Positions 7,470 to 23,266 of a stretch of DNA of 39,630 bases are shown here, one piece after another. Source of the stretch: Actinomycetes bacterium (lineage in GTDB: Bacteria; Actinomycetota; Thermoleophilia; BMS3ABIN01); the NCBI GenBank assembly GCA_021803005.1, contig JAJZQT010000010.1, forward strand, positions 1 through 39,630, written 5' to 3'. Position 1 is the first letter of the stretch. Each line of letters begins with the position of its first letter. The notes under the pieces were generated by a model that had not been told where the DNA came from, ran no database searches, and worked only from the letters and a program-made list of their open reading frames with translations. The translations under genes were made by a program, and so were the position numbers.

Positions 7470-7662
7470 TGGTTATCCAATTCTTCAAGCGGCTTTGGAC
7501 AGCCGCGAATTGATACATGTTCATATACACAGCATTCCCATATTAGCGGTTTTTGGTACATCCAGCCAACCCGTGAGCGCCAGAGACACCGGCAGCAGAC
7601 CGGGGATTCTATACGGCTCGCCGGGAGGGCGATGATGCGGCCGCGGCCGCCTGGCCCGGGGC

Positions 7663-8883
7663 CTAGATGGCCATCAGGCGGATGAACTCGTCCTGGAATT
7701 TTTTATTCAGCGGCAGGGCGACATGGCGGATGCGACCGCGAATCTCCTCCAGCGCGCCCCTGCCATCGCCGCCCAGCATCAGCACGGCTCCCTGGCAGGC
7801 GGCGTCGGCGACCACCTCGATGCGGTCGTTGGGAAGATCGGGGAACATCTTCAGCAGGCGGGCGTTGTCGAGGTTGATATAACTCCCGAAGGTGCCGGTG
7901 ATCAACATGCGGCCCAGATCTTCGCTGCCGAGCTTCATCCTCAGCACCGATATGGCCGCATGCACCGAAGCCTTGACCAGCTGGAAGGAACGTATGTCAT
8001 GCTGGCTGACGGTGATCGCCTCTTCGCCCCCGGCGACGACCACGGGGCCCTCACGCAGCAGCCGGCCGCTTTCGTCCACCCAGCCGTTCCTCCTCATCCC
8101 GGCGATGATGTCAATAAGGCCCGAGCCGCAGATGCCGCGGGGCTCTCCGTCTCCGACCACTGAGTATTCAAAGCCGCCGTGCCGAAGCTCGGCCTTGTAG
8201 ATGGCGCCTTCTGTCGCCGAAAGGCCGAAGGACATATGCGTGTCCTCATAGGCCGGACCGGCGGGGCTCGATGCCACCAGGATCTTCTCACGGTTGCCGA
8301 GCGCCATCTCGCAATTGGTGCCGACGTCGACGATGAGCTCGGTCTCGCCGCTCTCGGTCATGCCCACCAGCACGATGTCGGCCAGGGCGTCCGCGCCAAC
8401 GAAACCAAAGATCGGACGGGGAATAAACAGGTTGGCCGCGGGCAGGTTGAGGCCGAGCGAGGCGGCCGGCCCCTGGAAGTCTGCCGCGCCCTTGAGATTG
8501 TAGGGGGTGCCGCAAAGCGGACCCGGATCGGCATCGAGCATGAAGGCATACATGGCGGAGTTGCCGACGGCCGCCACCTCGCTGATCTCTCCCGGGCCGA
8601 TGCCGGCATTGGCGCACAGGCGCGAGATCGAGTCATCGATTGCGCCTATCACCTCGGCATGCAGCTCCGCCCGGGCGGAGGAGTCCCCGTCGGCCAGGCC
8701 CAGGCGGCTGGCGATATCGGCGCCGTGGCGCTGCTGGGGGTTGGGGATCACCAGCGTATCGAGCACGCCAGCGCCGCCCAGGTCCACCAGCCGGGACCAG
8801 ATGCTCGAGGTGCCAACGTCGATGGCGACGCCGTATCCCTTTTTTGAGGCATCGCCCTGATCGATCTCTGAGGTATTCATCAA
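7663..8883 (-). CDS. RACo/DUF4445-like ASKHA ATPase (corrinoid reductive-activase C-terminal domain only)
   Basis: 406 aa. 'YGVAIDVGTSSI', 'LIVDVGTNCEMALG', 'SSPAGPAYE', 'GICGSGLIDIIAGM', 'ITVSQHDIRSFQLVKASVHA', 'ITGTFGSYINLDNA' resemble the ASKHA domain of corrinoid activation proteins. No ferredoxin-type Cys cluster is visible. Confidence 0.65.
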   Translation of the reverse strand: MMNTSEIDQGDASKKGYGVAIDVGTSSIWSRLVDLGGAGVLDTLVIPNPQQRHGADIASRLGLADGDSSARAELHAEVIGAIDDSISRLCANAGIGPGEISEVAAVGNSAMYAFMLDADPGPLCGTPYNLKGAADFQGPAASLGLNLPAANLFIPRPIFGFVGADALADIVLVGMTESGETELIVDVGTNCEMALGNREKILVASSPAGPAYEDTHMSFGLSATEGAIYKAELRHGGFEYSVVGDGEPRGICGSGLIDIIAGMRRNGWVDESGRLLREGPVVVAGGEEAITVSQHDIRSFQLVKASVHAAISVLRMKLGSEDLGRMLITGTFGSYINLDNARLLKMFPDLPNDRIEVVADAACQGAVLMLGGDGRGALEEIRGRIRHVALPLNKKFQDEFIRLMAI

Positions 8884-9052
8884 AGTGATAGCGTGTCCAG
8901 GGTATTCAAAGTAACTTGGAATGTGGCGCCTCCCGGGCGGAAACTTCCCGCAACGGCAGGCAAAAACAAAAATCAGCGTAGCAGAAAAGGCGGGGGCTCA
9001 CAAACGCGCCGCGCCGCCGTCTCCCGGCCGGCAATCTCGCTTGCGACCCGCT

Positions 9053-9068
9053 CTTTATCACGATAAAG
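9053..9068. promoter_or_regulatory. 16-bp palindrome CTTTATC-AC-GATAAAG in the divergent control region
   Basis: A perfect 7+7 inverted repeat in the 370-bp AT-richer spacer between the RACo-like gene and the plus-strand radical SAM operon. Operator function is inferred. Confidence 0.35.
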
Positions 9069-9253
9069 CTCGTGGTAATAGGCGTATTTGTCTGATAAAC
9101 TTATTGCAGGTAAAGGGTGAGGGAAAGCTCGGGGTTAAGCTTCGTTAGACCATGTCTTCAAAGGTTTTTTCGCTCTTCTCTCAAAGTCTCGTTCAAGTAT
9201 TATTGTTGCAGGACGTGCACATCGCTGCGCCGATTCGACCGGGGAGCGGTTAA

Positions 9254-10705
9254 TTGAAGTCAATGGTCATACTGCCATCCTGGAAGCCGGATGACATCTA
9301 TCCGTCCAAGCTGGCAAAGTCCGCTATCAGCTACCAGCACCCGCTGGGGCTACTTTATATAGCCACCTGCATCCAGGAGGCCGGCCACGAAGTTCAACTC
9401 GTCGACGGCGCTTTCTGGACTCACAGCGAGGTCATCGACAAGGTCCGTGATTTTCAGCCCGGCTTTGTCGGCATCTCGGCCAATGCTTCCCTGTGGACCA
9501 AGGCGATGAAGACGGCGGCCGGCATCAAGGCCCTCGATCCCTCCATCCACGTGACCGTGGCCGGGCCCTATCCCTCGGCGGTGGAAGAAAAGTGCCTGGA
9601 GCAGTGCGGCGACCTGGATTCCATCGTCGTCGGCGAAGGCGAGGAGACCGTCCCCGAACTGATCGCCCGGCTGGAACAGGGCGAGAGCCTGGCCGGCGTC
9701 GCCGGCGTGGCCTTCCGCGCCGATGACGGCGCCATCGTCAAGAACGAGCCGCGGCCGCTCATCGAGGACCTCGACAGCATCCCCATCCCCCGGCGCGAGC
9801 TTCTGGGAGACTTTAACAAGTATGAGTCGCCGCCCGGCAGCTACAAGGAAAAGCCCATCGCCATCGTCATGAGCTCGCGCGGCTGCAAAGCGCACTGCAT
9901 CTACTGTTTCCAGATGAAGGGCGAGCGGCGCATCCGTTTCCGCAGCGTCGGGAACGTGGTCAGGGAGATTGAGGAGCTGGTGAACCGGTACGGCTTCCGC
10001 GAGATCCGCTTCCTGGACGAGACCTTCACCGCCGACCGCGACCGCGCCTTCGAGATCCTCCGCCGGCTCAAGTCAAAGCGGCTCAACTTCAGCTTCTATG
10101 TCTCCTCACGGGTCAACACCGTGGATTACGAGCTGCTCCGCGAGATGAAGAAGACCGGCTGCTGGGCCATCCTCTTCGGCGCCGAGAGCGGGGTGCAGAA
10201 GAACCTCAACACCATGAAGAAGGGCATCAACCTCGACCAGACCCGCGCCGCGGTGAAGGCGGCCAAGAAGGCCGGGCTCAAGGTGTACACGCCTTTCATC
10301 ATCGGCATCCCCGGCGAGACCTACGAAGAGGCGCTTGAGACCATCGATTTCGCCATCGAGCTCGACCCCCATTACGCCAACTTTCACTCGATGACCCCTT
10401 TCCCCGGGACCGAGCTTTATGAAAATATAGAGAATTACGGCACCATGTCCGCCGACACCGACGACTACACTTTCGAGGGAGGGGCTTTCGTGCCCTATAC
10501 GATGACCCGGGAGCAGATCGACGAGCTGCGCACGCTGGCTTTCCGGAAGTTTTACTCCAGGCCCAAATTCATCGCCCGGCGGCTGCTGGAGGTCCGCAGC
10601 TGGTACGATTTCCGCACGGTGATGAAGGGCGCTTCCAGCTTCTTCTGGCTGTGGGCAAAACGCGATTCGCTCGTGGTCAGGAAGGAAAGGGCGGCAGCCA
10701 AATGA
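9254..10705 (+). CDS. B12-binding-domain radical SAM protein (class B / COG1032-type)
   Basis: The N-terminal Rossmann-like segment 'LGLLYIATCIQEAGHEVQLVDG...VVGEGEETVPEL' is B12-binding-domain-like. 'SSRGCKAHCIYC' is a CxxxCxxC motif. TTG start with GGGGAG 7 nt upstream. Confidence 0.85.
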   Translation: MKSMVILPSWKPDDIYPSKLAKSAISYQHPLGLLYIATCIQEAGHEVQLVDGAFWTHSEVIDKVRDFQPGFVGISANASLWTKAMKTAAGIKALDPSIHVTVAGPYPSAVEEKCLEQCGDLDSIVVGEGEETVPELIARLEQGESLAGVAGVAFRADDGAIVKNEPRPLIEDLDSIPIPRRELLGDFNKYESPPGSYKEKPIAIVMSSRGCKAHCIYCFQMKGERRIRFRSVGNVVREIEELVNRYGFREIRFLDETFTADRDRAFEILRRLKSKRLNFSFYVSSRVNTVDYELLREMKKTGCWAILFGAESGVQKNLNTMKKGINLDQTRAAVKAAKKAGLKVYTPFIIGIPGETYEEALETIDFAIELDPHYANFHSMTPFPGTELYENIENYGTMSADTDDYTFEGGAFVPYTMTREQIDELRTLAFRKFYSRPKFIARRLLEVRSWYDFRTVMKGASSFFWLWAKRDSLVVRKERAAAK

Positions 10706-11802
10706 GCCGTCCCGTCAGCGAGATCCCGCCGGAAGCGCGCCCCGTGTCTGCGGCGAAGGTAAAGCCGCTGAGCGCTACCGCGCAGCCCAAGGTCTCGGTC
10801 GTCATCCCCATCTACAACGGCGCCGGCTCGATCACGCCGGTCATGGAGGCGCTCTTCAAGTCGACCTACGGGAATTTCGAGGCGGTCGTCATCCACGACT
10901 GCTCCACGGACAACAGCGGCGAGGTGCTGGACCGGCTGGCCGGGCAATACGATTTCCGCCTTTTCGAGTTCCCGGAAAACCGCGGCGTCTCCAAGGCGCG
11001 CAACGAGGGCGCCCGGCGGGCCAAGGGCGAGGTCATCCTCTTCATCGACGCCGACTGCATCATCAGGTCCGATACGATCGAGCGTTGCGTCAGGGCGCTG
11101 CAGAAGGGGGAAAGCATCTGCGTCGGCGGCGCCTACACCTGCGATGCCTGGGACCAGGATTTCTTCAGCAACTTCCAGTCGCTCTACATCCATCATGTCG
11201 AGACCAAGGTGGAGCATCCGGACTACATCGCCACCCACTGCATGGCTATCTGGAAGAAGGCTTACGACGAGTTCGGCGGCTTCAAGGAAGACTATTTCAT
11301 CGGCCACGCCGCCAGCGTCGAGGACGTCGAGCTCTCACACCGGCTGATCAGGGCCGGGCATCAGCTGTCGCGGCCGGCGGACATCCAGGTGCAGCACATT
11401 TTCGGCTTCAGCTTCAGCAAGTCGATCCGCAACGCCGTCAAGAAGAGCAAGTACTGGACCATGTATTCACTTCACAGGCGCGACGTCATGAAGGATTCCG
11501 GCGCCGCCTCCCACGAGCTCAAGGTCAACGTGGGCACGCAGACGATCAACGTCTGCCTGGTGGCGGCCGCGGCGGTAACGCGCAGCTGGTGGCCGCTGAT
11601 GGGAGTCATGTTCCTCTACGGCGTCAACACCGCCGTCAGCTACAACCTGCTGCGGCTGATAAAGCAGGAAAGAGACTGGTGGTTCCTGATCCGGGCCATG
11701 GGTTACTACCAGTTCGTCTATCCCTTCGCCGTCGCCTACGGCGCCTTCATGGGAATCCTCAAATATATCTGGGAAGTGAAGCTTACCCGGCGCTACTCCT
11801 AG
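10702..11802 (+). CDS. Family 2 glycosyltransferase with C-terminal transmembrane helices
   Basis: 'VSVVIPIYNGAGS', 'DCSTDNSGEVL', 'NRGVSKARNEG', DXD-like 'FIDADC', and C-terminal hydrophobic helices. ATG 10702 overlaps the upstream TGA (ATGA). Confidence 0.85.
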   Translation: MSRPVSEIPPEARPVSAAKVKPLSATAQPKVSVVIPIYNGAGSITPVMEALFKSTYGNFEAVVIHDCSTDNSGEVLDRLAGQYDFRLFEFPENRGVSKARNEGARRAKGEVILFIDADCIIRSDTIERCVRALQKGESICVGGAYTCDAWDQDFFSNFQSLYIHHVETKVEHPDYIATHCMAIWKKAYDEFGGFKEDYFIGHAASVEDVELSHRLIRAGHQLSRPADIQVQHIFGFSFSKSIRNAVKKSKYWTMYSLHRRDVMKDSGAASHELKVNVGTQTINVCLVAAAAVTRSWWPLMGVMFLYGVNTAVSYNLLRLIKQERDWWFLIRAMGYYQFVYPFAVAYGAFMGILKYIWEVKLTRRYS

Positions 11803-11821
11803 ATGTTAGGCTATAGTAAGG

Positions 11822-11845
11822 CCCGGCGGCGTTCGCCGGCTTTTT
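11822..11845 (+). terminator. Weak intra-operon terminator/attenuator-like hairpin (6-bp GC stem ccggcg/cgccgg, 5-nt loop, TTTTT)
   Basis: Read directly. The T-tract ends 4 nt before the ATG of the next gene (11850). Confidence 0.35.
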
Positions 11846-11849
11846 CCCG

Positions 11850-12938
11850 ATGCCCATGAACTCGTCGCTCAAGTACATCCCTTCGATCTTCTACAAGCGC
11901 CAGCCGCTGCAGTTCACCTTTTTCGTGACCTCGCGCTGCAACGCCCGCTGCCCCTTCTGCTTCTACTGGCAGGACCGGCACGCCGGGCAGGACGAACTGA
12001 CGGTGGACGAGGTCGAGAAGGTCGCCTCTTCCATGGGAAACCTGCTGTGGCTGCTTTTTTCCGGCGGCGAGATCTTCCTGCGCAAGGATCTTCCCGACCT
12101 GGTGGACGCTTTCTACCGCCACAACCATCCCGTGATCATAACCCTGCCGACCAACGGCCTGGCGCCGGACCTGATCCTGCCGCGGACCGAGGAGATCCTC
12201 TCGCGCAGCCCGGAGAGCGCGGTTGTCTGCAAGATTTCCCTCGACGGCGTCGGCGAGGACCACGACCGCATCCGCAATACCCCGGGCAGCTTCGACAAGG
12301 CCATGGAGACCTACGAGGGGCTGCGGCGGCTGGGAGAGCGCCACAAGAACCTGCAACTGGGCATAAACACGGTTTTTTGCCGTGAGAACCAGGACGACAT
12401 GGACCGTATCATCGATTACGTCAACGGCATCCAGGGATGCGAGACCCACACCATTTCCATGATCCGCGGCAATCCGGCGGACGGTTCCTTTAAGGAAATC
12501 GACCTGGAGAAATACCGCCGGGCCGTGGAGCGCCTCGAAGACGACTTGAAAGGCGGCAACGCAAAGATGTACCATTTTACCCTGGCCCGGTTAAAGACGG
12601 CCCAGGACCTGGTGCAGCGGCGCCTGATCTACGAGACCATACGGCAGGGAAGGCGGCTGCTGCCCTGTTATGCCGGCCGCATCGGGGCCGTCATGAGCGA
12701 AACGGGGGACATCTTCCCTTGCGAGATCCTTGACGACAGGATGGGCAACGTCAGGGAGTCGGGCTATGACTTTCCCAAGGTTTTTTTCTCGGAACAGGCT
12801 GATGCTGTCCGGGCCAAGATCAACAGTACCCGATGCTACTGTTCACACGAGTGTTATTTCGTCACAAACATTTTATTCAATCCGCTAAAGTACGGACGGG
12901 TGCTCGGTCAGTACCTGGCCTTGACGGGGAAGAGCTAA
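11850..12938 (+). CDS. Radical SAM protein with C-terminal SPASM/twitch-like Cys cluster
   Basis: 'FFVTSRCNARCPFCFY' (CxxxCxxC), 'FSGGEIFL', and C-terminal 'LPCYAG...IFPCEIL...TRCYCSHECYF'. Confidence 0.85.
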   Translation: MPMNSSLKYIPSIFYKRQPLQFTFFVTSRCNARCPFCFYWQDRHAGQDELTVDEVEKVASSMGNLLWLLFSGGEIFLRKDLPDLVDAFYRHNHPVIITLPTNGLAPDLILPRTEEILSRSPESAVVCKISLDGVGEDHDRIRNTPGSFDKAMETYEGLRRLGERHKNLQLGINTVFCRENQDDMDRIIDYVNGIQGCETHTISMIRGNPADGSFKEIDLEKYRRAVERLEDDLKGGNAKMYHFTLARLKTAQDLVQRRLIYETIRQGRRLLPCYAGRIGAVMSETGDIFPCEILDDRMGNVRESGYDFPKVFFSEQADAVRAKINSTRCYCSHECYFVTNILFNPLKYGRVLGQYLALTGKS

Positions 12939-12994
12939 CCATCAAGCGCTGCGCCGCGTACGAATCGGCTGCCACCATCGAGCCGGCCGCGCCG

Positions 12995-14662
12995 TTGCCG
13001 CTCGCGGAGCGCGTCCGCGAGAGGGCGCCGCGGCTGGCGCTGGTCCTGAGCCTCGGCGCCATCCTGCTGTTCGTGCTGCTTATCACCCTTCCATTTATCA
13101 ATCAGCCGTTCCACATGGATGACGGCACCTTCCTTGATTTCGCCAAGGTCAACCTGGTCCATCCTTTCCAGCAGCACATCCCCGACTATCATCTCATGGG
13201 GGTTGACATAACTGCTTTCCGTGATACCCATCCGGCGCTGGACTGGCTCTATATCACGGCCCTGATGAAGCTGACCGGCAGTGATTCCGAGCGGGTGCTG
13301 CACCTGGGCTACATTATCTTCCCGCTGACGGCCGCGGTCTCCATGTTCTTCCTCTCGCGGCGGTTTATCAGCAACGCCCTGCTGGCGACGCTGCTGCTCC
13401 TGGCGACGCCGGCGCTGATGACAGCCTCGCACACGCTGATGGGAGACATGCCGCTGCTGGCGCTCTGGCTGGCGGCCACCGCCATCTACATCTACGGGGT
13501 CGACCGGGACGACATGCGGCTGCTGCCGCTAGCGGGCGTGGCCACGACCCTCGCCATCTTTGCCGGATACCAGGGCCTGGCGCTGCTGGCGCTGCTGCCG
13601 GCGTATGCCTGGCTCAACCACAGGCTATCCTGGAGGACGGCGCTGCCGCTGCTGCTGCCGGCTGCCACTTTCAGCCTCTACACCATCTACAACTACATCG
13701 ATTACGGCGGGCCCCCGCGCTTCACCCACGCCGGGGGGCTCAGCCTGCAGGAAGGAGACCTGTTCGGCAGGTTCCAGGGCGCGCTGCTGCAGGTGGGCGG
13801 CGCTTCGGTCTTCCCGCTGGCGCTGGCGGGCATTTTCTGTCTGCGCCGCCGGCGTTATTTCCTGCTCGTGGCGGTGGGGGCTACCGTGTCGGCCTGGGGA
13901 GCCTACCATTACCGCTATGACGCCTACACCGCGGCGGCGGCGGTGCTGTTTGTGATATTCATGACCGCGGTTGTGATGGCGCTGCTGTCGATCGCAACCG
14001 ATGGCATCGGGCAGCTGCGCCGTATCGTCAAGCGGCTCGATTTCGACGCCGACTTTGTCTTCCTGGCGCTGTGGCTGATATCGATGCTGGCGGCCGTGAT
14101 CGTGCTGCTGCCGCACTCCACCGCCAAGTACAGCCTTCCCTTCCTGGCGCCGCTGATTCTGCTGATCTTCCGCGAGGCGGAGGCAAGGATCGCGTCGCGG
14201 ACCCCGCTGATGCTGATCATGTCCCTGGCCGTACTCTTCACCCTGGCCTCCGGGGTGGTTGTTTCCGCGGCCGATTACCAGCTGGCTGAGACCTACAGGG
14301 ATTACGCCCTGAGCTTCAACCGCAGCTATCAGACCGGGGGCACCGTCTGGTTCGTGGGGGAATGGGGATTCCGCCATTACATGGAATCCCAGGGATACCG
14401 GTACCTGACAACCGACAGCACGGCGCCGTCTCCCGGAGACCTGATCGTCAAACCGAGGCTGAGCGAATGGCCGCTGGCCGGCCAGGTTACCAGCCGCATG
14501 AAATTGATCGGCACTACCGCCGTGGAGGGAACGCTGCCGGTGAGGGTGATGAGCTTCGAGGCTGGAGCCGGCCTCTACGGAAACTTCTGGGGGCCCCTGC
14601 CCTATTCGATCTTGGACGCGCCGATCGAACGGTTCGACGTCTACCAGGTATCTGATTCCTAG
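12995..14662 (+). CDS. Polytopic membrane protein, candidate GT-C-fold (ArnT/PMT-like) glycosyltransferase
   Basis: About 12 hydrophobic helices, an acidic first-loop motif 'FHMDDGTFLDF' after TM1, and a ~130-aa soluble C-terminal domain. The start is uncertain: TTG 12995 chosen; ATG 12833 would overlap the upstream gene by 106 nt. Confidence 0.6.
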   Translation: MPLAERVRERAPRLALVLSLGAILLFVLLITLPFINQPFHMDDGTFLDFAKVNLVHPFQQHIPDYHLMGVDITAFRDTHPALDWLYITALMKLTGSDSERVLHLGYIIFPLTAAVSMFFLSRRFISNALLATLLLLATPALMTASHTLMGDMPLLALWLAATAIYIYGVDRDDMRLLPLAGVATTLAIFAGYQGLALLALLPAYAWLNHRLSWRTALPLLLPAATFSLYTIYNYIDYGGPPRFTHAGGLSLQEGDLFGRFQGALLQVGGASVFPLALAGIFCLRRRRYFLLVAVGATVSAWGAYHYRYDAYTAAAAVLFVIFMTAVVMALLSIATDGIGQLRRIVKRLDFDADFVFLALWLISMLAAVIVLLPHSTAKYSLPFLAPLILLIFREAEARIASRTPLMLIMSLAVLFTLASGVVVSAADYQLAETYRDYALSFNRSYQTGGTVWFVGEWGFRHYMESQGYRYLTTDSTAPSPGDLIVKPRLSEWPLAGQVTSRMKLIGTTAVEGTLPVRVMSFEAGAGLYGNFWGPLPYSILDAPIERFDVYQVSDS

Positions 14663-16095
14663 TCAAACATCAAGCGTATGCTTTTCAGGTAATTCCTCAT
14701 CACGCGGACGGATGTCATTTTCCGCAGGTGCCTGAGCATGATGTTTGGCCGCAGGTAAAATCGGCGGTAGGCCCGCCTGGGAGCGTTGGCAAGCTGCTCC
14801 CGCGTCACGTGTTTGTGGCGATAGACCGGCTTGCCCATCACGTCGTAATCGTACCAATTTTCAGTGAGCAGCAAGCCTTCTGCCCGGTATCTCTCAAATT
14901 CCTGCGTGCCCGGGAACGGCACCATGACGCCAAACCCGGCGCTGTCGAGTCCGATCTCGCGGGAAAAATCAATCGTCTCCTGCATCGTTTCGGGAGTCTC
15001 GTCAACGAACCCAAAAAGGAAGTACCCATGTGCGGAAATGCCGGCCTGCCGGGTGGCCTGCACGGCCGTAGCCACCTTTTCCCTGGTGATGTTCTTGATC
15101 TCCTCGAGCATGGCGGCATTGCCCACCTCGATGCCATACTGAATGAGCCGGCAACCGGCCTTTTTCATCGCTGACAGCATTTCTGCATCGACCTCGTTGG
15201 CACGGGCGCTGCAGGTCCAGGCGATATCAAGGTTGCGCTCGTTTATCAGGCGGCAAATCTCCAGCAGGCGCTTTCGATTGCAGATCATCGACGGATCGCG
15301 GAAGGAAAATGTGGTCACGGCGTAATCTCGGTACAGCCAGGTCATCTCATCGACGATATTCCCGGCGCCGCGAAGCCGGTACCTCTTTCCCTGTTGAGCG
15401 GTTACGTCACAAAAACAGCAATTATAAGGGCAGCCGCGGCCGCTGATGATACAGGAGAAATTCCCACTTTTGCCCCACGCGGGAAACGGGTTGTAAAATG
15501 CCGGCTCGGGCAGCAGGTCGTGCGCGGGAAAGGGCAGCCCGTCGAGATCCATGTTTCTGTTCCTGGTTGCGGTCGTAACCGTCCCGGACTCGCCGGGAAT
15601 TACCAGCCCGGGCACCGTTTCCAGGTCAACGCCGGCGGCGACAGCATTGCAGATGTCGCGCATGGTCTCCTCGCCCTCACCAATTACCGCGACATCGACG
15701 TCAGGTCCGCTCACGGCGTCCGCGGGCAGGGCGGTCACGTGCGGCCCTCCCACCACGGTCAGGACTTTCGAAGCTCCTTGCTTGACGATTCCGGCCAGCT
15801 TCCGGGCGTCGGGCCATTGGGGCGTCAGGGACGAGATACCGACCACATGCGGCTGAAAAGATTTGATCGTGTTGCGGATATCACTTGTGGTGGTTCCCAT
15901 CGAGTAGGCATCGATGATGCGGACCTCGTGGCCTGCCTGGCGGGCCGTCGCAGCCACATAAGCCAGACCCAGGGGCTGCGTTGAGATCCAGGGACGCTCG
16001 ATCTCGTCCTTCCAGAGGCCGCGAGGAGGCGTCATCAGAAGAACCCTGCATCCCGAATTTGTTTCCTTCATCCTGTTCCCGTCATCTGCCCGCAC
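14659..16095 (-). CDS. B12-binding-domain radical SAM protein (tandem paralog 2)
   Basis: 'LGLAYVAATARQAGHEVRIIDA', 'VIGEGEETMRDI', 'SGRGCPYNCCFCDV'. Collinear with the 16414-17838 product. Start is GTG 16095 or ATG 16071. Confidence 0.85.
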   Translation of the reverse strand: MRADDGNRMKETNSGCRVLLMTPPRGLWKDEIERPWISTQPLGLAYVAATARQAGHEVRIIDAYSMGTTTSDIRNTIKSFQPHVVGISSLTPQWPDARKLAGIVKQGASKVLTVVGGPHVTALPADAVSGPDVDVAVIGEGEETMRDICNAVAAGVDLETVPGLVIPGESGTVTTATRNRNMDLDGLPFPAHDLLPEPAFYNPFPAWGKSGNFSCIISGRGCPYNCCFCDVTAQQGKRYRLRGAGNIVDEMTWLYRDYAVTTFSFRDPSMICNRKRLLEICRLINERNLDIAWTCSARANEVDAEMLSAMKKAGCRLIQYGIEVGNAAMLEEIKNITREKVATAVQATRQAGISAHGYFLFGFVDETPETMQETIDFSREIGLDSAGFGVMVPFPGTQEFERYRAEGLLLTENWYDYDVMGKPVYRHKHVTREQLANAPRRAYRRFYLRPNIMLRHLRKMTSVRVMRNYLKSIRLMFD

Positions 16096-16326
16096 CGTCC
16101 GGCTGCGGGTGAATTACCGTTTTCCCCACGTATCCTGCTGCCGCGGAACAACTACATGTTCCGTGTCTCTCGAAAGGAAGATTGCTCGAACCCGCAGAGC
16201 TCTAGAAAGTCCAGAAAACCGTTGACTTAAAGAGGAAATCCTACCCACCCAAGCGCCCGAACTTAATAATCTGCACGCAAGGCCGCCGTTTCACTAGTGG
16301 CGTCTGCCCCATTATTCAATGTTACA

Positions 16327-16335
16327 ATTATAACA
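16327..16335 (-). promoter_or_regulatory. Extended -10 promoter candidate (TGTTATAAT on minus strand) for the downstream radical SAM paralog
   Basis: A perfect TGnTATAAT element. It lies after a GC hairpin (agccgg...ccggct, about 16352-16378) that could terminate the upstream gene. It would give a ~230-nt leader. Confidence 0.4.
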
Positions 16336-16413
16336 ATAACCGCGTCAAATGAGCCGGGAACCCGCTGGCGGCCGGCTTGCTCTTGATATAAATGTCCGTC
16401 TTGATCGGGCAAC

Positions 16414-17838
16414 TCATCTGAACACCTGCCTCGCCGCTTGCAGGTAATTGAAGAAAATTTGCGGCGAAGCCATTTTCCTCAGATGCAGGGCCAGAATCCT
16501 CGGCCTCAGGTAAAATCGGCGGTAGGCGCGGCGATGCGCTCTCATGATCTGGTCACTGGTGACGTTCGCGTTCCGGTAAACCGGCTTGTTCATGTAGTCA
16601 TATTCGCGCCACTCTTTCGTCAGCAACCGGCCTTCAGACTGGTAGCGCTCGAACTCGCGAGTGCCCGGGAAGGGAACCAGGATCATGAAGCCGGCGCTGT
16701 CGAGGTCCAGTTTTCTGGCGAAGACCGCTGTTTCTTCCATGGTCGCCTCGGTCTCGTCGGAAAAGCCGAACATGAAGTAACCGTGGGGAGAGATGCCCGC
16801 CCGGCGCGTGTCGCTGACCGCCTGCTCCACCTGTGTTTTTTCCATGCGTTTGATTGATTTGATCATTTCGGCATTGCCGACCTCGATGCCATACTTGATC
16901 AGATAGCAACCAGCCTGCTTCATGGCGACGAGCATCTCCAGGTCAACTTCATCGGCGCGGCTGTTGCAGTTCCAGACGATATCCAGCCCCCGCTCCCGGA
17001 TCAACCGGCAGATCTCCAAGAGCCGCTTGCGGTGGCAAACCACAGAGGGGTCCCGGAACGAAAACATGGAAATGCCATAATCCTTGTTGAGCCACTCCAT
17101 TTCGTCGACTATGTTTCCCGCGCTCCGCAGCCTGTACTGCTTGCCCTGCTGGGCGGTGACGTCACAGAAACTGCAGTAATAGGGGCATCCTCTGCCGCTG
17201 AGGATGCTGGAGAAGTGGCCCCGTCTGCCCCAGGTGGGCAGGGGATTGTAGGTGGCCGGATCCGGCAGCAGGTCGTGGGCAGGGAAGGAAAGGCTGTCCA
17301 GATCGGTGATTTTCGGCCGGGGGCCGGTTCGGACCACATTGCCGCCGATCTCCAGGGCTATGCCTTTGACTGAACTCAGATCGCCTCCGGCCGCCACGGT
17401 GTTGCAGATGTCCTGGATCGTTTCCTCACCCTCTCCGATCACAGCGATGTCGACACTCGGATCGGCGGCCGTTTCTTCCGGCAATGCGGTGACATGCGGC
17501 CCACCCACCACGGTGACAATTTTCTCATCCACGGTCTTGGCGATGCGGGCTGCGGCCTGTACATCGGACCACTGCGGGGTCAGACAGGAAATACCCACCA
17601 CTTTTGGACGCATCGATTCGATCTTCTCGCGGATGGACTCACCGGAGAGTCCCAAAGCGTGAGCTTCAAGGATCTCGGCGGGATGGCCGCCCTGGCGAAC
17701 CGCAGCCGCAATATAGGCGATTCCGAGAGGTTGTGTCGATTCACGCGGTTTCTCGACCGCGTCTTTCCAGAGACCCTTTGGCGGGGTCACGAGCAGCAGG
17801 CCGTTGCCGGATTTATCGCTCATGGTTAAAGCAGTCAC
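16414..17838 (-). CDS. B12-binding-domain radical SAM protein (tandem paralog 1)
   Basis: 'LGIAYIAAAVRQGGH', 'VIGEGEETIQDI', 'SGRGCPYYCSFCDV'. GTG 17838 overlaps the upstream TGA (GTGA); the alternative start is ATG 17823. Confidence 0.85.
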   Translation of the reverse strand: MTALTMSDKSGNGLLLVTPPKGLWKDAVEKPRESTQPLGIAYIAAAVRQGGHPAEILEAHALGLSGESIREKIESMRPKVVGISCLTPQWSDVQAAARIAKTVDEKIVTVVGGPHVTALPEETAADPSVDIAVIGEGEETIQDICNTVAAGGDLSSVKGIALEIGGNVVRTGPRPKITDLDSLSFPAHDLLPDPATYNPLPTWGRRGHFSSILSGRGCPYYCSFCDVTAQQGKQYRLRSAGNIVDEMEWLNKDYGISMFSFRDPSVVCHRKRLLEICRLIRERGLDIVWNCNSRADEVDLEMLVAMKQAGCYLIKYGIEVGNAEMIKSIKRMEKTQVEQAVSDTRRAGISPHGYFMFGFSDETEATMEETAVFARKLDLDSAGFMILVPFPGTREFERYQSEGRLLTKEWREYDYMNKPVYRNANVTSDQIMRAHRRAYRRFYLRPRILALHLRKMASPQIFFNYLQAARQVFR

Positions 17839-19247
17839 GCCTTGGCGCGGACGACTTTGAAGAAACTCCTGACCAGCCGGTAATACCTTCTGATATCCTC
17901 CGGCCCCCTGATTGCCGACGCCAGCCGCATAAACTGCCGCGGCCTCACGAAAAAGTCGACGATGGCCTTGCGGTGCATCTCCTGGATATACTCCGCGGTC
18001 AACCCCCTGGGCACGAAACCCAGATTGCCCCGCTGGTAACTGGAGCCGATGTCGAGACTCATGTTGGTGGAGCCGTATTCGTGGGCGATCTCGCGCGCCT
18101 TCGAGCCGGGAGCCAGGTACATGACACTGATGTTCATGGAATAAAGCGGCAGCGACCTGGCGAAATCGATGGTCTCCTGGATGGTCTCCCTGGTCTCGAT
18201 CAGGTGCCCGATCATGAAGTAACCGCGGATCCTGATGCCCTCGTCGCTAAGCCAGCCGAGCACCCGCCGCACCGTCTCCTTGTCAACCGGCTTGTGGATG
18301 AATCTCAGCACTTCATCGCTGCCGCTCTCGATGCCGCACGACACCAGCCAGCAGCCGGCGTCCTTCATCGCCTTGATGACTTCACGGTCGAGAGTTGTCA
18401 GATTGACCGTCGCCGTCCAGGGAATCCTGATGCCGCGCTCCTTCATCAGGCGGCAGATCTCCAGCACCCGGCGCCTGTTGAGGGCGAAAGTGTCTTCATG
18501 GAAGCTGACCTCGCGGGCGCCGAACTCTTCAATGACGTGCTCGACCAGGCCCACGACGTACGCGGCCGAGTTTCCCCGCCAGCGATGGGTCCAGACGGAG
18601 TTGCAGAAGATACACTGGAAGGGACAGCCGCGGCTGGTGATGAGCGTGACGACAGGCTTGCGCCGGTAGACCATCTGATGGGGGGCATAGGTCTCGATGC
18701 CCTTGATCAGGTGGAAAGCCGGATATGGCAGATCGTCCAGATTGTCAAGGAGCGGGCGCGGCTCGTTCTTTACGACTTCGCCGTCCCGGTGGAAATAGAT
18801 TCCCTGCACCCGCTCCAGGTCGCCGCCGGATTCGATGGTTTCCACCAGCTCCAGCAGCGAATACTCACCCTCGCCGGTCACCAGGTAGTCGAAAGCGTCG
18901 CACTGGGCCAGGTCCTCGGGGAACACCATCACGTGAGGACCGCCGGCGACGATGGGGATGCCGAACTCGCTCTTGATCGCCGTGGCGGTCTCGATCGCCT
19001 GGTTGGCGCCGATCGAGTAAACCGAGAGGCCGATGAGTTCCGGCTGGAACTGCTTCACTTTTTCGGCGAGGGCCAGCAGGCTGAGCGGATGCCTCACCGA
19101 ATCGATGATCATCACTTCATGCCCGGCCTTCTCCAGGACCGCGCCGAGGCAGCAGAGGCCGTAAGGAGGAAGATAGGAACCGATATCTTCCAGGTTGCCG
19201 TAACGTTTTACGCCGCTGACCGCGCCGCTTATCAGCAGTAACTTCAT
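17835..19247 (-). CDS. B12-binding-domain radical SAM protein
   Basis: 'YGLCCLGAVLEKAGHEVMIID', 'VTGEGEYSLLEL', 'TSRGCPFQCIFCNS'. ATG 19247 overlaps the stop of the corrinoid-protein gene (ATGA). Confidence 0.85.
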   Translation of the reverse strand: MKLLLISGAVSGVKRYGNLEDIGSYLPPYGLCCLGAVLEKAGHEVMIIDSVRHPLSLLALAEKVKQFQPELIGLSVYSIGANQAIETATAIKSEFGIPIVAGGPHVMVFPEDLAQCDAFDYLVTGEGEYSLLELVETIESGGDLERVQGIYFHRDGEVVKNEPRPLLDNLDDLPYPAFHLIKGIETYAPHQMVYRRKPVVTLITSRGCPFQCIFCNSVWTHRWRGNSAAYVVGLVEHVIEEFGAREVSFHEDTFALNRRRVLEICRLMKERGIRIPWTATVNLTTLDREVIKAMKDAGCWLVSCGIESGSDEVLRFIHKPVDKETVRRVLGWLSDEGIRIRGYFMIGHLIETRETIQETIDFARSLPLYSMNISVMYLAPGSKAREIAHEYGSTNMSLDIGSSYQRGNLGFVPRGLTAEYIQEMHRKAIVDFFVRPRQFMRLASAIRGPEDIRRYYRLVRSFFKVVRAKA

Positions 19248-19897
19248 CGCCTGTCGCCATCGCGGCCGGTAAGCCTGCGGCAGACCGCCAGCGTGCTCTT
19301 GACGTCGGTGGCAAAACCGTCGACGCCGACCTCGCGCGCGAATTTCTCGGAGTGTGAAGCCCCTCCGGAGACGACCTTGACGCTGCCGCGCAGCCCTTCG
19401 GCTTCCAGCGCCGCCATGACGTCGAGCAGGGCCGGCTTGGTCGAGGTGGTAAAGGCCGACAGCAGCAGCAGGCCGGCCCCGGTTTCCCTGACCTTGTTTA
19501 CAAATTTTTCCGTCGAGACGTTCACGCCCAGATCGTGGACCTCGTATCCGGCCGCCCTCAGGGCCGAGACGATGATGTTCTTGCCGATGTTGTGGATGTC
19601 TCCCCTGACCGTGCCCATGACCACCACGCCCGCCTGCTCGTGGCGGCTCTCGAAAAGATAGGGCTCGAGCACGGCCATGGCCTTCTCCACCGCTTCGGCC
19701 GAGCGCAGCATCTCGGGGATGAAATACTCGCCGGTCTGATAACGGCTGCCAACTTCCTCCATGGCATTGGAGAGGTGGGCGAAGATCTCGTCGGCGGTTG
19801 CCTGTCCCGCCGCCACAATGGCGTCGGCCAGGTCGGCGCTGGCGTCGGCGTTACCGGCGATGAGAGCCGTCTCGAATTTTTCCAGGATCTCTTCCAT
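19244..19897 (-). CDS. Corrinoid (cobalamin)-binding protein, MtaC/MtbC/MetH-cap type
   Basis: 217 aa. N-terminal helical cap 'YQTGEYFIPEMLRSAEAV', then 'GTVRGDIHNIGKNIV' (DxHxxG), 'LLLLSAF' and 'VVSGGA' of the B12-binding Rossmann domain. Confidence 0.85.
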   Translation of the reverse strand: MEEILEKFETALIAGNADASADLADAIVAAGQATADEIFAHLSNAMEEVGSRYQTGEYFIPEMLRSAEAVEKAMAVLEPYLFESRHEQAGVVVMGTVRGDIHNIGKNIIVSALRAAGYEVHDLGVNVSTEKFVNKVRETGAGLLLLSAFTTSTKPALLDVMAALEAEGLRGSVKVVSGGASHSEKFAREVGVDGFATDVKSTLAVCRRLTGRDGDRR

Positions 19898-19928
19898 GTA
19901 TTGCCGGGGTTCCTCCCGATGCGTTCTC

Positions 19929-20939
19929 TTAGTAGCTGCCGTACTTCCGGCCGTACTCCACCAGCGCGGCGATATTTTCCTCCGGGGCTGAAAGCGGGAT
20001 CGAGTCGCCGCTGCTCAGGATGAAGCCGCCGCCCTTGCCGGCAGCCCCGATGGCCGCCTTCACGGCCGCCTCGACAGCGGCGATGCCGCCTTTCTCGATT
20101 ACCGAGACGGCGTCGATGTTGCCCTTGAGGGCCACCTTGCCGCCGACCGCGGACTTGGCCGCCGCCAGGTCGACGGGCGAGTCGATCTCGAGCGCCGCGG
20201 CGCCGGTTCTGGCCATGTCTTTCAGGATCGGCATGCTGTTTCGGCAGATGTGCAGGATAACTGGAATCTCCTCCGCCAGCTCCGCGATGGCCTCGCGCCC
20301 GGATGGAAAAGCGAATTCACGGTAATGCTCGGGGGAGATCATGCTCGAGGAGGCAAAGGAATCCTTGACCACCAGCGCGTCGACTCCCGCCTTGATAAAT
20401 GCCCTGCCGACCGCCATGGTCGCCGGCCTGACCGCCTCGATCAGGTCGCGCACCAGCCCGGGGTCACGATAGAAATCGGTCATAAATTCGATCAGCCCCC
20501 GGACGGTGGCCGCGTATTCGAATGGCGAGCGGACGCTGCCGAGGACGGCATAGCCGCCCGCGGCGGCCTCTACCAGCCGCTGGACCGGCTCCATCTTGCC
20601 GCCGGCCCAGGGATCGGGCATGGCCAGTTTCTCGAGGTCCTCGCGCCCGCCGACGATCGTCTCAACCACCAGCGGCACGTCGTTGCCCTCGATCTCGACC
20701 GGGCAGCCCAGCACGTTGGGGTCCGGACCCAGCCCCATCTCGGCCACGGCGCCGTCGTAGGCGAACTTCAGCTGAGCCGCCGTCAGGGCCTCGGCCAGGC
20801 AGGCGCCGTCCGCGAAACAATCATCGTTGGCGCGCCCGATGACCTTGGGCGCAAAGAAGCCGTCCACAACCGGCACAATCGGGACCCGGTCCGGCATCTC
20901 GCCGGCCAGGACCGCCAGGAACCTCTCACGGGAATTCAC
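19929..20939 (-). CDS. URO-D-family protein, MtaA/CmuA-like (MT2-type methylcobamide methyltransferase-like)
   Basis: 336 aa. 'MNSRERFLAVLAGEMPDRVPIVP', 'ILHICRNS' (HxC), 'GFILSSGDSIP'. GTG start with a GGGGTGGG SD. Confidence 0.7.
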   Translation of the reverse strand: MNSRERFLAVLAGEMPDRVPIVPVVDGFFAPKVIGRANDDCFADGACLAEALTAAQLKFAYDGAVAEMGLGPDPNVLGCPVEIEGNDVPLVVETIVGGREDLEKLAMPDPWAGGKMEPVQRLVEAAAGGYAVLGSVRSPFEYAATVRGLIEFMTDFYRDPGLVRDLIEAVRPATMAVGRAFIKAGVDALVVKDSFASSSMISPEHYREFAFPSGREAIAELAEEIPVILHICRNSMPILKDMARTGAAALEIDSPVDLAAAKSAVGGKVALKGNIDAVSVIEKGGIAAVEAAVKAAIGAAGKGGGFILSSGDSIPLSAPEENIAALVEYGRKYGSY

Positions 20940-20972
20940 GAACCCACCCCTGCCGCCTTCATTCCATCGCCC

Positions 20973-21305
20973 TTAAGTAACCCCGGCCTCGACGCGCGGC
21001 GCTTCCTTCCAGAGGACCTCGAGACGGTAGAAATCGCGCGATTCGGGGGTAAAAATGTGCACGACGACGCTCAGGTAATCCAGAAGAACCCAGTCGCCGC
21101 GGGCTTCTCCCTCGATCCTCAAGGCGGGAATGCCCTGTTCCTTGAGCTTGCTGCGGATCCCGTCGGCTATCGCCCTGGTCTGACGCTCGGACCGGCCGGA
21201 ACAGATAAGAAAGTAGTCGGTGTAGCTGACCACGTCCTTCATGTTGAGAATGACGATCCCGGCCGCTTTCTTGTCAGCGGCCGCCTCGGCAATCGCCCCG
21301 ACCAA
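20973..21305 (-). CDS. rsfS: Ribosome silencing factor RsfS
   Basis: 'AAADKKAAGIVILNMKDVVSYTDYFLICSGRSERQTRAIAD...GDWVLLDYLSVVVHIF' is a canonical RsfS/iojap sequence. TTG start. Confidence 0.9.
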   Translation of the reverse strand: MVGAIAEAAADKKAAGIVILNMKDVVSYTDYFLICSGRSERQTRAIADGIRSKLKEQGIPALRIEGEARGDWVLLDYLSVVVHIFTPESRDFYRLEVLWKEAPRVEAGVT

Positions 21306-21399
21306 CCTGTCGCTGCTAATACTCTTAGTGATCTAGTACCTCTCGGTGTAAGTGGCGGCGGTTATCATATTGGCGCGTCCGGCCGGCCAGGGCCCGGCG

Positions 21400-22647
21400 C
21401 TACCTTTTCTGCAGTTCCGCCAAAGTAATGTCTCTTCCCATGATAACAATGATCTGGCGTTTTTCCATGTAATCGTCCTTGATTATCGTTCCCACGCCCA
21501 GCGCGTCGCGCACGCGGTTGCCCGCGGCCAGCACGTCGCTGCCCACCCGGATCTGGGTGCTGTCGAAATTCACGCCGGACGGATCCGGCTGCTGGGTCAT
21601 GGTGTAGCGCAGCGGCGCCAGCCTGTCGGCCGCGGCCTCGACCAGGCCGGGGGTCTCGGTGCCGTTGCGGACTTCCAGGGCGATGGAGGCGTCGCGCGAA
21701 TTGCCGGTCATCAGTGTCTCGATCTCGGCGGGCACCGGCTCCAGGTACCAGTCCCTGCCGGTGACGGCGATCTTGACCGGCAGCGGCCAGGTGCCAAAGG
21801 GACGGCCCGGCGCGGTTATGCTGAGGATCAGGTCGGTGAACTCGCCCTCATCCATGTCGGTCTGCACCCGCTGGAAGACCAGCGCCGCCAGGCCCCGGCG
21901 CTCGACTTCGGTCTTTAGCGCCAGGGAATCCCTGAGCCCCTGATAGAAGAGCGACTGCACCCTGGGGCCGTCAAGCCCGTCGGCCGCGGAGGCCTTGAGA
22001 TAGGTCATGGCGTTCTGGGCGCTGGTGGGATTGTCCCCGGCGGTCAGATGTACCGGCGGCGCCGCCGCGCTTAAGTCCTGGGCGCGGTCGGTCCTGAAGT
22101 TGATGGTGCCGGCCTGCGCCAGCGCCAGGTCCAGGACGCCATAGTCGAGGTTAATGTGGTACTGGATCGGCACCTGCAGGAGGTTGGCCACGGTCTGGTC
22201 CAGCAGTTCCTGGCCGCCCAGCGCCGTGATATGGTCGAGCTCCTGAAAGCCGTGGCCGGGTGTGTCGGAGACTGTCCGGGCCGGGATGGTGAAGAGGCCG
22301 AAGCCGCCGTCGCTTTCCGGGACCAGCACGGCCAGCTGGCTCAGCCTGCCCTCATCGTCGTTGCCGGTGATGATGACCGTGCCCGAGCCCGGGGAGACGG
22401 GCCCGGCGTCCGCCGTGGCCGCCGACGACCCACGGTTGCGCACGGTCATGAAGACAGTCACGAACATCAACAGCGATATCACCACGCCGGATATCAGAAT
22501 GTAGCGGGTGGTGCGCCGCCGCCGGAGGCGGTGCTGCGCGGTCAGCCTGGCCTTGCGGAATCCCGACTCGCTGGGAAGAGAATAACCGCGGCGGCGGCGA
22601 TCGCTACGCTTGAGGCTGTTCTTGAAGGTATAGTCGTTCTTTTTCAA
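21400..22647 (-). CDS. LCP-like membrane protein with C-terminal LytR_C domain
   Basis: Basic N-terminus, one TM helix, a central LCP-like region ('LFTIPARTV...LGGQELLDQTVANLLQVPIQYHINLDY'), and a C-terminal 'IALEVRNGTETPGLVEAAADRL...IRVG' LytR_C-type domain. It overlaps the nadD 3' end by 44 nt. Confidence 0.6.
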   Translation of the reverse strand: MKKNDYTFKNSLKRSDRRRRGYSLPSESGFRKARLTAQHRLRRRRTTRYILISGVVISLLMFVTVFMTVRNRGSSAATADAGPVSPGSGTVIITGNDDEGRLSQLAVLVPESDGGFGLFTIPARTVSDTPGHGFQELDHITALGGQELLDQTVANLLQVPIQYHINLDYGVLDLALAQAGTINFRTDRAQDLSAAAPPVHLTAGDNPTSAQNAMTYLKASAADGLDGPRVQSLFYQGLRDSLALKTEVERRGLAALVFQRVQTDMDEGEFTDLILSITAPGRPFGTWPLPVKIAVTGRDWYLEPVPAEIETLMTGNSRDASIALEVRNGTETPGLVEAAADRLAPLRYTMTQQPDPSGVNFDSTQIRVGSDVLAAGNRVRDALGVGTIIKDDYMEKRQIIVIMGRDITLAELQKR

Positions 22648-23221
22648 TGAATTTCTCGACGCCTTCGGGCACCAGGTATCTGATGGACTTTCCTTGGGAC
22701 ACCCTTTTCCTGATCAGGCTGGAAGACACATCGATGCAGGGAATCTCCATGATCCGCACCCGTTCCTGCTGAAGGAAGCGGCGCGTCTCCGCAGGCATCT
22801 GCTCCAGCGAGTAACCGGGGCGGCGGGCGGCGATCAGGGTCGCCAGCCGCAGGATCTCATCCGGTTCCTTCCATTGCAGGATCTCGGCAACGGCATCGGT
22901 GCCGGTGATGAAGAACAGCTCTGCCGAGGGTTTTTCCGCACGGAAATGCCGCAGCGTGTCCACCGTGTAGCATACCCGATTCTGGTCGATCTCGTAGCGG
23001 GAAACCTCGAAGCGCGGGTTGGAGGCGGTGGCGATGACGGCCATCTCGTAACGTTCCTCGGAGCAGCCGGAGCCGGTCTGCTTGTGCGGGGCCAGGCCGG
23101 TCGGCATGAAGATCACTTCGTCAAGGCCGAAATGGGAGACGGCCTCTTCGGCACAGGCAAGATGCCCGATGTGTATCGGGTTGAAGGCGCCGCCCATTAT
23201 TGCCAGTTTCACGAGAGCCAT
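22604..23221 (-). CDS. nadD: Nicotinate-nucleotide adenylyltransferase
   Basis: 'IMGGAFNPIHIGHL' (HxGH), 'VIFMPTGLAPHK', 'SSSLIRKRV'. Confidence 0.9.
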   Translation of the reverse strand: MALVKLAIMGGAFNPIHIGHLACAEEAVSHFGLDEVIFMPTGLAPHKQTGSGCSEERYEMAVIATASNPRFEVSRYEIDQNRVCYTVDTLRHFRAEKPSAELFFITGTDAVAEILQWKEPDEILRLATLIAARRPGYSLEQMPAETRRFLQQERVRIMEIPCIDVSSSLIRKRVSQGKSIRYLVPEGVEKFIEKERLYLQEQPQA

Positions 23222-23266
23222 GACCTTATGTCATTCAATGGCGGGGCCGCCGAATCCTGCGAATTC

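Follow-up and report, generated by a model that had tools for sequence, protein, structure and literature searches.

Outside energy metabolism, that is, methanogenesis, acetogenesis, and dehalogenation, hardly any corrinoid-protein methyltransferase systems are known. Within the UroD superfamily the S-methyltransferases carry a His-Cys-Cys site, while in the O-methyltransferases Asp/Glu or non-ligands replace one or both Cys residues (Kountz and Balskus, PMC10418091); the first methyltransferases (MT-I) of O-demethylase systems are only about 17% identical to the MtaA-type enzymes (PMC10418091). The estrogen methyltransferase EmtAB pairs a methyltransferase with a corrinoid protein and has a RACE-like activase, but lacks a separate second methyltransferase; it serves to methylate a specific metabolite (PMC7448270). 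The present work concerns a pair of adjacent minus-strand genes, encoding a URO-D-like methyltransferase and a corrinoid protein, in a stretch of 39,630 nucleotides (nt) designated below as the window (contig JAJZQT010000010.1 of assembly GCA_021803005.1), which comes from a Thermoleophilia lineage of metagenome-assembled genomes (MAGs) found in mine-drainage metagenomes.

The gene order given in an earlier reading of the same DNA (the original prediction), that is, a URO-D-like gene, a DxHxxG corrinoid gene, and two genes for cobalamin (B12)-binding radical S-adenosylmethionine (SAM) enzymes (B12-rSAMs), is present in the window, and a third B12-rSAM gene (14659-16095), which was not listed there, lies further on, all on the minus strand. 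This unit forms one end of a 13-kb cluster (7663-20939). For comparison, 24 clade loci from species-representative genomes and others from assemblies were collected, and the window proteins were mapped onto them by tblastn; single loci are given by L numbers. The reading to which we tentatively lean is a self-contained corrinoid methyltransferase that would act on an oxygen nucleophile and would have been recruited to an envelope-glycan tailoring cluster.

The URO-D-like enzyme and its His-Cys-Asp site

The first gene of the pair (19929..20939, minus strand) encodes a predicted MtaA-like corrinoid methyltransferase of 336 amino acids (aa) with the URO-D TIM-barrel fold, matching Pfam URO-D over the full length with 191 bits. 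Its AlphaFold2 model (pLDDT 96.8) finds the MtaA structures 4AY8 and 4AY7 as the top Foldseek matches with template modelling (TM) scores of 0.86–0.89, the best being 4AY8 with 0.89. Among the models tested the protein is closer to the MtaA type, and its scores lie under the MtaA/CmuA family cut-offs (144.5 versus 235.4 bits for TIGR01463, 106 versus 400 for the MtaA model NF040654, and 98 versus 600 for the MtbA model NF041608). Its identification as HemE was rejected, since TIGR01464 gives 74 versus 303 bits and the RQAGR and GHG motifs are absent.

The HxC motif, the predicted proximal zinc-ligand pair, is kept as H230-I-C232 (20244..20252, minus strand; LHICRNS), while the position of the MtaA distal Cys, 82 residues past His230, is taken by Asp312 (codon 20004..20006, minus strand; FILSSGDSIP), so that the site is not His-Cys-Cys. 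In the phmmer alignment to PDB 4AY7 the segment 'lhicrns' pairs with MtaA 'lhicgnv' and 'ssGDsip' with 'apGCgia'; MAFFT places both alike, and the two alignments bear out the original claim that HxC is retained and that Asp stands for the distal Cys. Asp312 is found, together with D26, C41, H230, C232, and D253, in 31/31 clade members (47–88% identity), whose sources are MAGs of Thermoleophilia/Gaiellales and a small number of archaeal ones. In 39 remoter homologues (<38% identity) position 312 is Cys in 27 and His in 6, the remainder having other residues. An exhaustive HMMER search covered 1.84 billion cluster representatives, and among the best 150 (50%-identity clusters), which were aligned, 117 have the His-Cys-Cys and 12 the His-Cys-Asp site, the latter set reaching members of about 28–42% identity with a common S-T-G-D-S motif. 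As judged from these alignments, His-Cys-Asp is a minority but recurrent class, and Asp312 is a clade signature and no accident. When metagenomes were scanned for more divergent members of the clade, only 4 loci proved usable, and their types were all known from the clade already.

The replacement of Cys by Asp312 is of the kind described for the O-(de)methylating enzymes of the UroD superfamily, and under this Cys-to-carboxylate rule (PMC10418091) the conserved Asp312 makes a CoM-like thiol acceptor unlikely, as had been proposed for the enzyme from the sequence. Cys41, tried as a relocated zinc ligand, was rejected as it aligns with a Cys conserved in true HemE too and is probably a non-ligand.

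The corrinoid protein and the activase

The second gene of the pair (19244..19897, minus strand) encodes a corrinoid protein of 217 aa with the cap and Rossmann B12-binding domains (Pfam B12-binding_2 and B12-binding) and with the DxHxxG motif in the form DIHNIG (aa 100-105; 19583-19600, minus strand). Its closest solved relatives are the O-demethylase corrinoid protein 4JGI of D. hafniense (1e-34, 192 residues aligned) and Moorella 1Y80, the match to MtaC being only 6e-15. The cut-offs of the corrinoid families are missed (152 versus 215 bits for TIGR02370; 155 versus 370 and 147 versus 310 for the MtgC models).

A RACo/AcsV-type gene for an ATP-dependent corrinoid reductive activase (7663..8883, minus strand) is recognised by Pfam Raco_middle (117 bits) and by RACo_C_ter, an ASKHA ATPase domain (192 bits); its open reading frame (ORF) starts at 8883 beside a 370-nt intergenic region. 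The protein has no N-terminal [2Fe-2S] domain, as it covers residues 198-618 of 632 in AcsV and 197-615 of 631 in PDB 3ZYY, and an external electron donor would therefore be needed. The missing part, about the first 196 residues of 3ZYY/AcsV, comprises the [2Fe-2S] ferredoxin domain and the linker, and the orthologues in L001 (410 aa) and L005 (372 aa) lack it likewise. RACo goes with the pair in Thermoleophilia and in L005 and is absent from loci that have the core radical SAM gene of the cluster (B12-rSAM-4, see below) without the pair.

Gene junctions and transcription

On the minus strand the genes follow as proB, proA, nadD, an LCP-family gene, rsfS, URO-D, the corrinoid gene, and B12-rSAM-1, B12-rSAM-2, and B12-rSAM-3. 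The ribosome silencing factor gene rsfS (20973..21305, minus strand; Pfam RsfS 117 bits, TIGR00090 above cut-off) ends at 20973, and the URO-D gene starts at 20939, which leaves the gap of 33 nt from which read-through had originally been suspected. This suspicion is supported by a 4-nt rsfS/URO-D overlap in 11 of 19 related loci, and co-transcription of the unit with rsfS, the final housekeeping gene ahead of it, is probable. The corrinoid gene directly follows the URO-D gene in every lineage, at a gap of -10 to +63 nt.

The ATGA overlap of the corrinoid stop with the B12-rSAM-1 start (19244-19247) and the GTGA overlap before B12-rSAM-2 (17835-17838) were both found as described; the latter presumes a GTG start, with an alternative ATG 15 nt downstream, and the genes abut in both cases. 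Translational coupling of the corrinoid gene to a radical SAM gene thus stands for the window but not as a conserved design, since an overlap (-1 nt) occurs in only 2 of 22 Thermoleophilia relatives (L001, L021). In other relatives the distance is 19–58 nt (4 loci) or 99–362 nt (12 loci), and three (L006, L007, L022) have no radical SAM gene after the corrinoid gene. Upstream of B12-rSAM-3, in a 318-nt gap, the promoter-like motif TTGACG-N18-TAACAT (16319..16348, minus strand) is the sole window match to TTGA-N19-21-GTAAYAT, versus 0.01 expected by chance, and the same motif precedes the accessory radical SAM genes in L013, L016, L019, L023, and L024. According to the rarity of coupling in relatives and to this separate promoter-like motif, the conserved unit is rsfS-URO-D-corrinoid gene, and the coupling of the corrinoid gene to the radical SAM gene is genuine but local. 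The accessory B12-rSAMs are, as their types and leaders suggest, a variable set, for the most part transcribed separately, in which two types occur, type 1 and type 3, the latter with the paralogue B12-rSAM-2.

The leaders of the accessory radical SAM genes (230–360 nt), downstream of the motif, contain a common G-rich block, TGGGGT/GGGTGGGA, which is present at 16096-16413 of the window and in L013, L016, L019, L023, L024, and L028; it matches no Rfam family and is a possible leader element. A search of the 318-nt and 370-nt intergenic regions for a cobalamin or SAM riboswitch gave no Rfam match (gathering score or E<=1).

Conservation of the gene order

An independent assembly (run X3) provided contigs over 12596-19592 and 19571-23500 with the same gene order, and thus the order is not an assembly artefact. 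This run, from another study, holds a second population variant with 39 substitutions over the 7-kb contig and with the cluster not rearranged (window 7000-23500).

About 20 Thermoleophilia loci have a common order of nadD, LCP, rsfS, URO-D, corrinoid gene, 0–3 accessory B12-rSAMs, PMT_2(-), SPASM-type radical SAM(-), family-2 glycosyltransferase (GT2)(-), B12-rSAM-4(-), and RACo(+). PMT_2 is retained in this cluster, and the commonest radical SAM gene after the corrinoid gene in the relatives is type 3, the kind of B12-rSAM-3. These loci are 68–88% identical and therefore count as one lineage.

More distant lineages differ in what surrounds the pair. In L050 (54% identity, with archaeal-type regulators) it adjoins orthologues of the SPASM-type radical SAM, GT2, and B12-rSAM-4 genes; a 403-aa gene at the end of this locus was considered as RACo and rejected, being a CWB2 cell-wall-binding protein. 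The pair of L005, a MAG labelled Woesearchaeota (47% identity), stands amid five B12-rSAMs, PMT_2, and RACo; there, at 6745-9206, about 800 nt from the pair, the stop of a truncated RACo gene and the start of a B12-rSAM gene overlap by 4 nt, and four more B12-rSAMs and PMT_2 occur on a 16-kb stretch. L003, L049, and L053 have the pair by itself, and in several archaeal lineages it is without radical SAM genes. In the Hydrothermarchaeota-like archaeal loci L051 (261-5906) and L058 (157-5857) it precedes genes for a CoA-binding (succinyl-CoA-ligase-alpha-like) protein, for HemE, and for an STT3/AglB-like oligosaccharyltransferase, and the second URO-D gene there was rejected as a missing first methyltransferase (MT1) because it carries the HemE signatures RQAGR and GHG.

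In total, three of seven independent lineages (Thermoleophilia, L050, and L005) have the pair beside B12-rSAM and glycosyltransferase genes, versus 0 of 19 loci of the remoter Cys-type homologues (rough hypergeometric p ~0.013), and the link of the pair to radical SAM genes is, on this genomic evidence, facultative. The original prediction had raised the case of an MT1 gene consistently beside the URO-D and corrinoid genes; no MtaB/MttB-type MT1 and no pterin-type second methyltransferase (MT2) adjoins the pair in the window or in about 30 related loci. A pterin-type MT-II domain, as in the three-component O-demethylases, is found in no window ORF and in none of the related loci examined.

The radical SAM and glycosyltransferase genes

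All four B12-rSAMs have an N-terminal B12-binding domain and a CX3CX2C radical SAM core, as class-B radical SAM enzymes do, with best scores of 193–235 bits against cut-offs of 481–578 for the named class-B families (HpnJ, BchE, and others). B12-rSAM-1 (17835..19247, minus strand; Pfam B12-binding and Radical_SAM; motif CPFQCIFC at 18603-18626, minus strand) is the accessory type 1 enzyme. B12-rSAM-2 (16414..17838, minus strand) is the type 3 paralogue, 61% identical to B12-rSAM-3 (14659..16095, minus strand), an accessory type 3 enzyme as well. B12-rSAM-4 (9254..10705, plus strand), the core class-B enzyme, is divergent from RACo and heads a set of plus-strand genes convergent with the minus-strand unit, which includes a GT2 gene (10651..11802, plus strand; Pfam Glycos_transf_2 108 bits), a SPASM-like radical SAM gene, and a PMT_2 gene. 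The product of the SPASM-like gene (11850..12938, plus strand; Pfam Radical_SAM, motif CNARCPFC at 11937-11960, plus strand) has a Cys-rich C-terminus of SPASM/twitch-like character with weak matches to NCBIfam SPASM-family models. The last of these genes encodes a PMT_2-family membrane glycosyltransferase of the GT-C class, ArnT/Pmt-like (12833..14662, plus strand; Pfam PMT_2). As listed, its ORF overlaps the preceding radical SAM gene by 106 nt (12833-12938), so that the true start probably lies further downstream; the convergent stop codons of PMT_2 and B12-rSAM-3 overlap by 4 nt (14659-14662).

The most conserved gene of the cluster is B12-rSAM-4, with 76–92% identity within Thermoleophilia and 55–58% identity in Nitrospirota, Desulfobulbales, Firmicutes, other Actinomycetota, and archaea. 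Its best NCBIfam match is HpnJ, an enzyme that modifies a sugar (235 bits, under the cut-off of 577.6). Outside Thermoleophilia, in the loci examined, it never occurs with URO-D, the corrinoid gene, or RACo. In other phyla its loci have Sulf_transp, TusA, and DsrE/H nearby and often PMT_2, GT2, and a radical SAM gene, and in L054, L055, L056, and L065 its translation is coupled to that of an upstream amino-oxidase/NAD_binding_8 flavoprotein gene; together the loci across phyla suggest an uncharacterised module of wide occurrence.

Among solved structures B12-rSAM-1 is closest to AprD4, a sugar-acting enzyme, and the best NCBIfam matches, HpnJ and BchE, are all under cut-off. The nearest outgroup of B12-rSAM-1 (54% identity) stands in an Arn-like cluster with DegT aminotransferases, GT2, a polysaccharide deacetylase, a SAM-dependent methyltransferase, EamA, and two PMT_2 genes. 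Like B12-rSAM-4, the B12-rSAM-1 family occurs elsewhere without the pair. The homologues of B12-rSAM-1 include fusions, P0330 (816 aa) and P0341 (798 aa), of the types GT2::B12-rSAM (P0330) and B12-rSAM::SPASM, which hint by analogy that the separate genes of the cluster may act on one substrate. The radical SAM and glycosyltransferase genes would fit the tailoring of a polyprenyl-phosphate-linked sugar followed by GT-C transfer.

Proposed function and rival explanations

Starting from the observed gene content, motifs, clade signature, and synteny, we infer a substrate class, a pathway, and a link between the modules. The URO-D-like enzyme, the corrinoid protein, and the truncated RACo would form an ATP-reactivated, cobalamin-dependent polar methyltransferase system with a putative zinc site of His230, Cys232, and Asp312, probably with Asp253, in place of His/Cys/Cys. 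The rule for Asp312-type sites and the likeness of the corrinoid protein to 4JGI and 1Y80 point to an oxygen nucleophile, that is, a hydroxyl/alkoxide or methoxy group, as the substrate rather than a thiol. The genes of the pair are adjacent everywhere and stand alone in some loci, so that the pair looks self-sufficient, and the single methyltransferase probably does both half-reactions or takes the methyl group from a simple donor, which may be SAM as in EmtAB; MtsA/MtsB, EmtAB, and the methyl shuttle of O-demethylase MT-I and corrinoid protein, which has reportedly been shown with phenolic substrates, would be the precedents. In Thermoleophilia the pair would be expressed from the rsfS operon, while the neighbouring Arn-like pathway (GT2, B12-rSAM-4, the SPASM-type radical SAM, and 0–3 accessory B12-rSAMs) would build and tailor a lipid-linked sugar that the PMT_2 GT-C enzyme passes to an envelope acceptor. 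The corrinoid system would then most likely add or remove an O-methyl group on the same glycoconjugate or its precursor, and the B12-rSAMs would rely on cobalamin and SAM of their own.

Several points weigh against this reading. In protein farnesyltransferase an Asp/Cys/His zinc site serves to activate a thiol, and by this example the URO-D-like enzyme may yet have a thiol substrate. Four of the seven lineages have the pair without radical SAM or GT2 genes nearby, and the Thermoleophilia synteny could be inherited rather than selected. Three metatranscriptome runs of the same study contain none of the sequence, and no read-through transcript was found in them; no methyl donor is identifiable from the cluster.

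Some of the same facts would suit a stand-alone methyl-group enzyme, for example one scavenging methyl from methoxylated or methylated small molecules, which merely resides in the nadD-LCP-rsfS housekeeping operon and has the radical SAM and glycosyltransferase genes beside it by inherited synteny. We regard this as possible but somewhat doubtful. The rsfS/URO-D overlap in 11 of 19 loci, the loci with the pair alone (L003, L049, L053) or beside hemE (L051, L058), the autonomy of the radical SAM modules elsewhere, and the counting of the Thermoleophilia loci (68–88% identical) as one lineage all speak for it. However, the association recurs in the distant lineages L050 and L005, RACo lies beyond the radical SAM and glycosyltransferase genes in all Thermoleophilia loci, and a stand-alone catabolic system should include a methyl acceptor enzyme, which is not present nearby. 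An S- or Se-methyltransferase, shuttling methyl between two thiols through the corrinoid protein in the manner of MtsA/MtsB and with Asp312 or Cys41 completing the zinc site, appears unlikely. MtaA and MtbA are indeed the closest characterised relatives by sequence and fold, HxC is kept, the clade-specific Cys41 is invariant, and in other phyla the B12-rSAM-4 family is tied to genes of sulfur relay (Sulf_transp, TusA, DsrE); yet carboxylate-substituted sites go with O-substrates by the literature rule (PMC10418091), Cys41 aligns with the non-ligand Cys of true HemE, the Thermoleophilia cluster has no sulfur-metabolism genes, and every NCBIfam MtaA/MtbA model is far under its cut-off.

Quite unlikely, to our judgement, is a methyl relay, in which the URO-D-like enzyme loads the corrinoid protein from a donor other than SAM, and the cobalamin of the class-B radical SAM enzymes is then methylated or reduced anew by the methyl-corrinoid protein and/or by RACo, so that each turnover costs one SAM less. 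It would account for the ATGA coupling of the corrinoid gene and B12-rSAM-1 in the window with the -1 nt overlaps in L001 and L021, for the 4-nt overlap of RACo with a B12-rSAM start near the pair in L005, for the position of the Thermoleophilia radical SAM and glycosyltransferase genes between the pair and RACo, and for a cluster without a conventional second methyltransferase. Against it, the coupling is missing in 20 of 22 relatives, three of which have no radical SAM gene after the corrinoid gene; the accessory enzymes have their own promoter-like motif, and a B12-binding domain is built into each radical SAM enzyme; the B12-rSAM-1 and B12-rSAM-4 families work elsewhere without any corrinoid protein, in several archaeal lineages the pair has no radical SAM genes with it, and protein-to-protein hand-off of a corrinoid methyl group was not found in the literature searched. 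The corresponding notion that the corrinoid protein, the His-Cys-Asp methyltransferase, and the RACo without Fe-S domain are a service module, supplying the radical SAM cobalamin with methyl from a donor other than SAM and/or with ATP-driven re-reduction, is in our estimate very unlikely; if it were true, radical C-methylation of a lipid-linked sugar would need only one SAM per turnover.

Under the preferred reading, a corrinoid methyltransferase on an oxygen nucleophile, the placement of a His-Cys-Asp clade in a housekeeping operon near envelope-glycan and radical SAM genes, in subsurface Actinomycetota and some archaea, points to biosynthetic (tailoring) use. Were there a mechanistic link to the class-B radical SAM enzymes, the view of the methyl and electron supply in that very large enzyme class would change. 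Besides, B12-rSAM, GT2, SPASM-type radical SAM, and GT-C enzymes make up an uncharacterised module in the cluster, with a core enzyme that is 55–58% identical across phyla.

Comparison with described systems

By their profile matches the parts of the cluster belong to known families, while none reaches a curated cut-off among the methyltransferase, corrinoid, and class-B radical SAM families tested. In the literature searched we found neither a class-B radical SAM pathway with a separate corrinoid protein, URO-D methyltransferase, and RACo, nor a His-Cys-Asp MtaA-like clade, its placement in an rsfS operon, or a recurrent neighbourhood of class-B radical SAM and GT-C genes.

The methylcobamide:coenzyme M (CoM) methyltransferases MtaA and MtbA (4AY7/4AY8) share with the URO-D-like enzyme the URO-D TIM-barrel (TM 0.89), the HxC pair, and a gene adjoining that of a corrinoid protein, and a carboxylate is found where MtaA has a Glu after strand 7. 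They differ in the distal Cys, which is the invariant Asp312 here, in the identity of only 22–25%, and in the context, as the present host is bacterial and has no methanogenesis context. The methylthiol:CoM methyltransferase MtsA/MtsB and the O-demethylase MT-I/corrinoid protein shuttle are alike in that one URO-D-type methyltransferase and one corrinoid protein can do both half-reactions, and this fits the pair standing alone in several lineages; MtsA (reference as cited in PMC10418091), however, is a thiol enzyme with a His-Cys-Cys site.

The O-demethylase systems (Odm, Vdm, Mtv, Mto) resemble the locus in the 4JGI/1Y80-like corrinoid protein, the carboxylate-substituted metal site, and the RACo-family activase. 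The locus, however, has an MtaA-like enzyme, no pterin-type MT-II, a RACo without the Fe-S domain, and no aromatic-compound genes nearby. EmtAB is unlike the pair in that EmtA is MtmB-like rather than URO-D-like, the donor being SAM and the acceptor a phenolate carbon. The radical SAM and glycosyltransferase side of the cluster is close to Arn/HpnIJ-type sugar tailoring, with GT2 and GT-C neighbours as ArnC/ArnT, HpnJ as the best family match, and the outgroup of B12-rSAM-1 in an Arn-like cluster.

The Type 1 mlp clusters (Kountz and Balskus, 2023), which of the described systems come nearest to the locus, are similar in having an MtaA-like UroD-family methyltransferase, a corrinoid protein, and an activase (Ram/RACE) in non-methanogens, with no folate methyltransferase. 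Those clusters carry two or three His-Cys-Cys Mlps with sulfur/selenium genes and are found mostly in Firmicutes, while the present locus has one His-Cys-Asp methyltransferase beside radical SAM and glycosyltransferase genes in Thermoleophilia.

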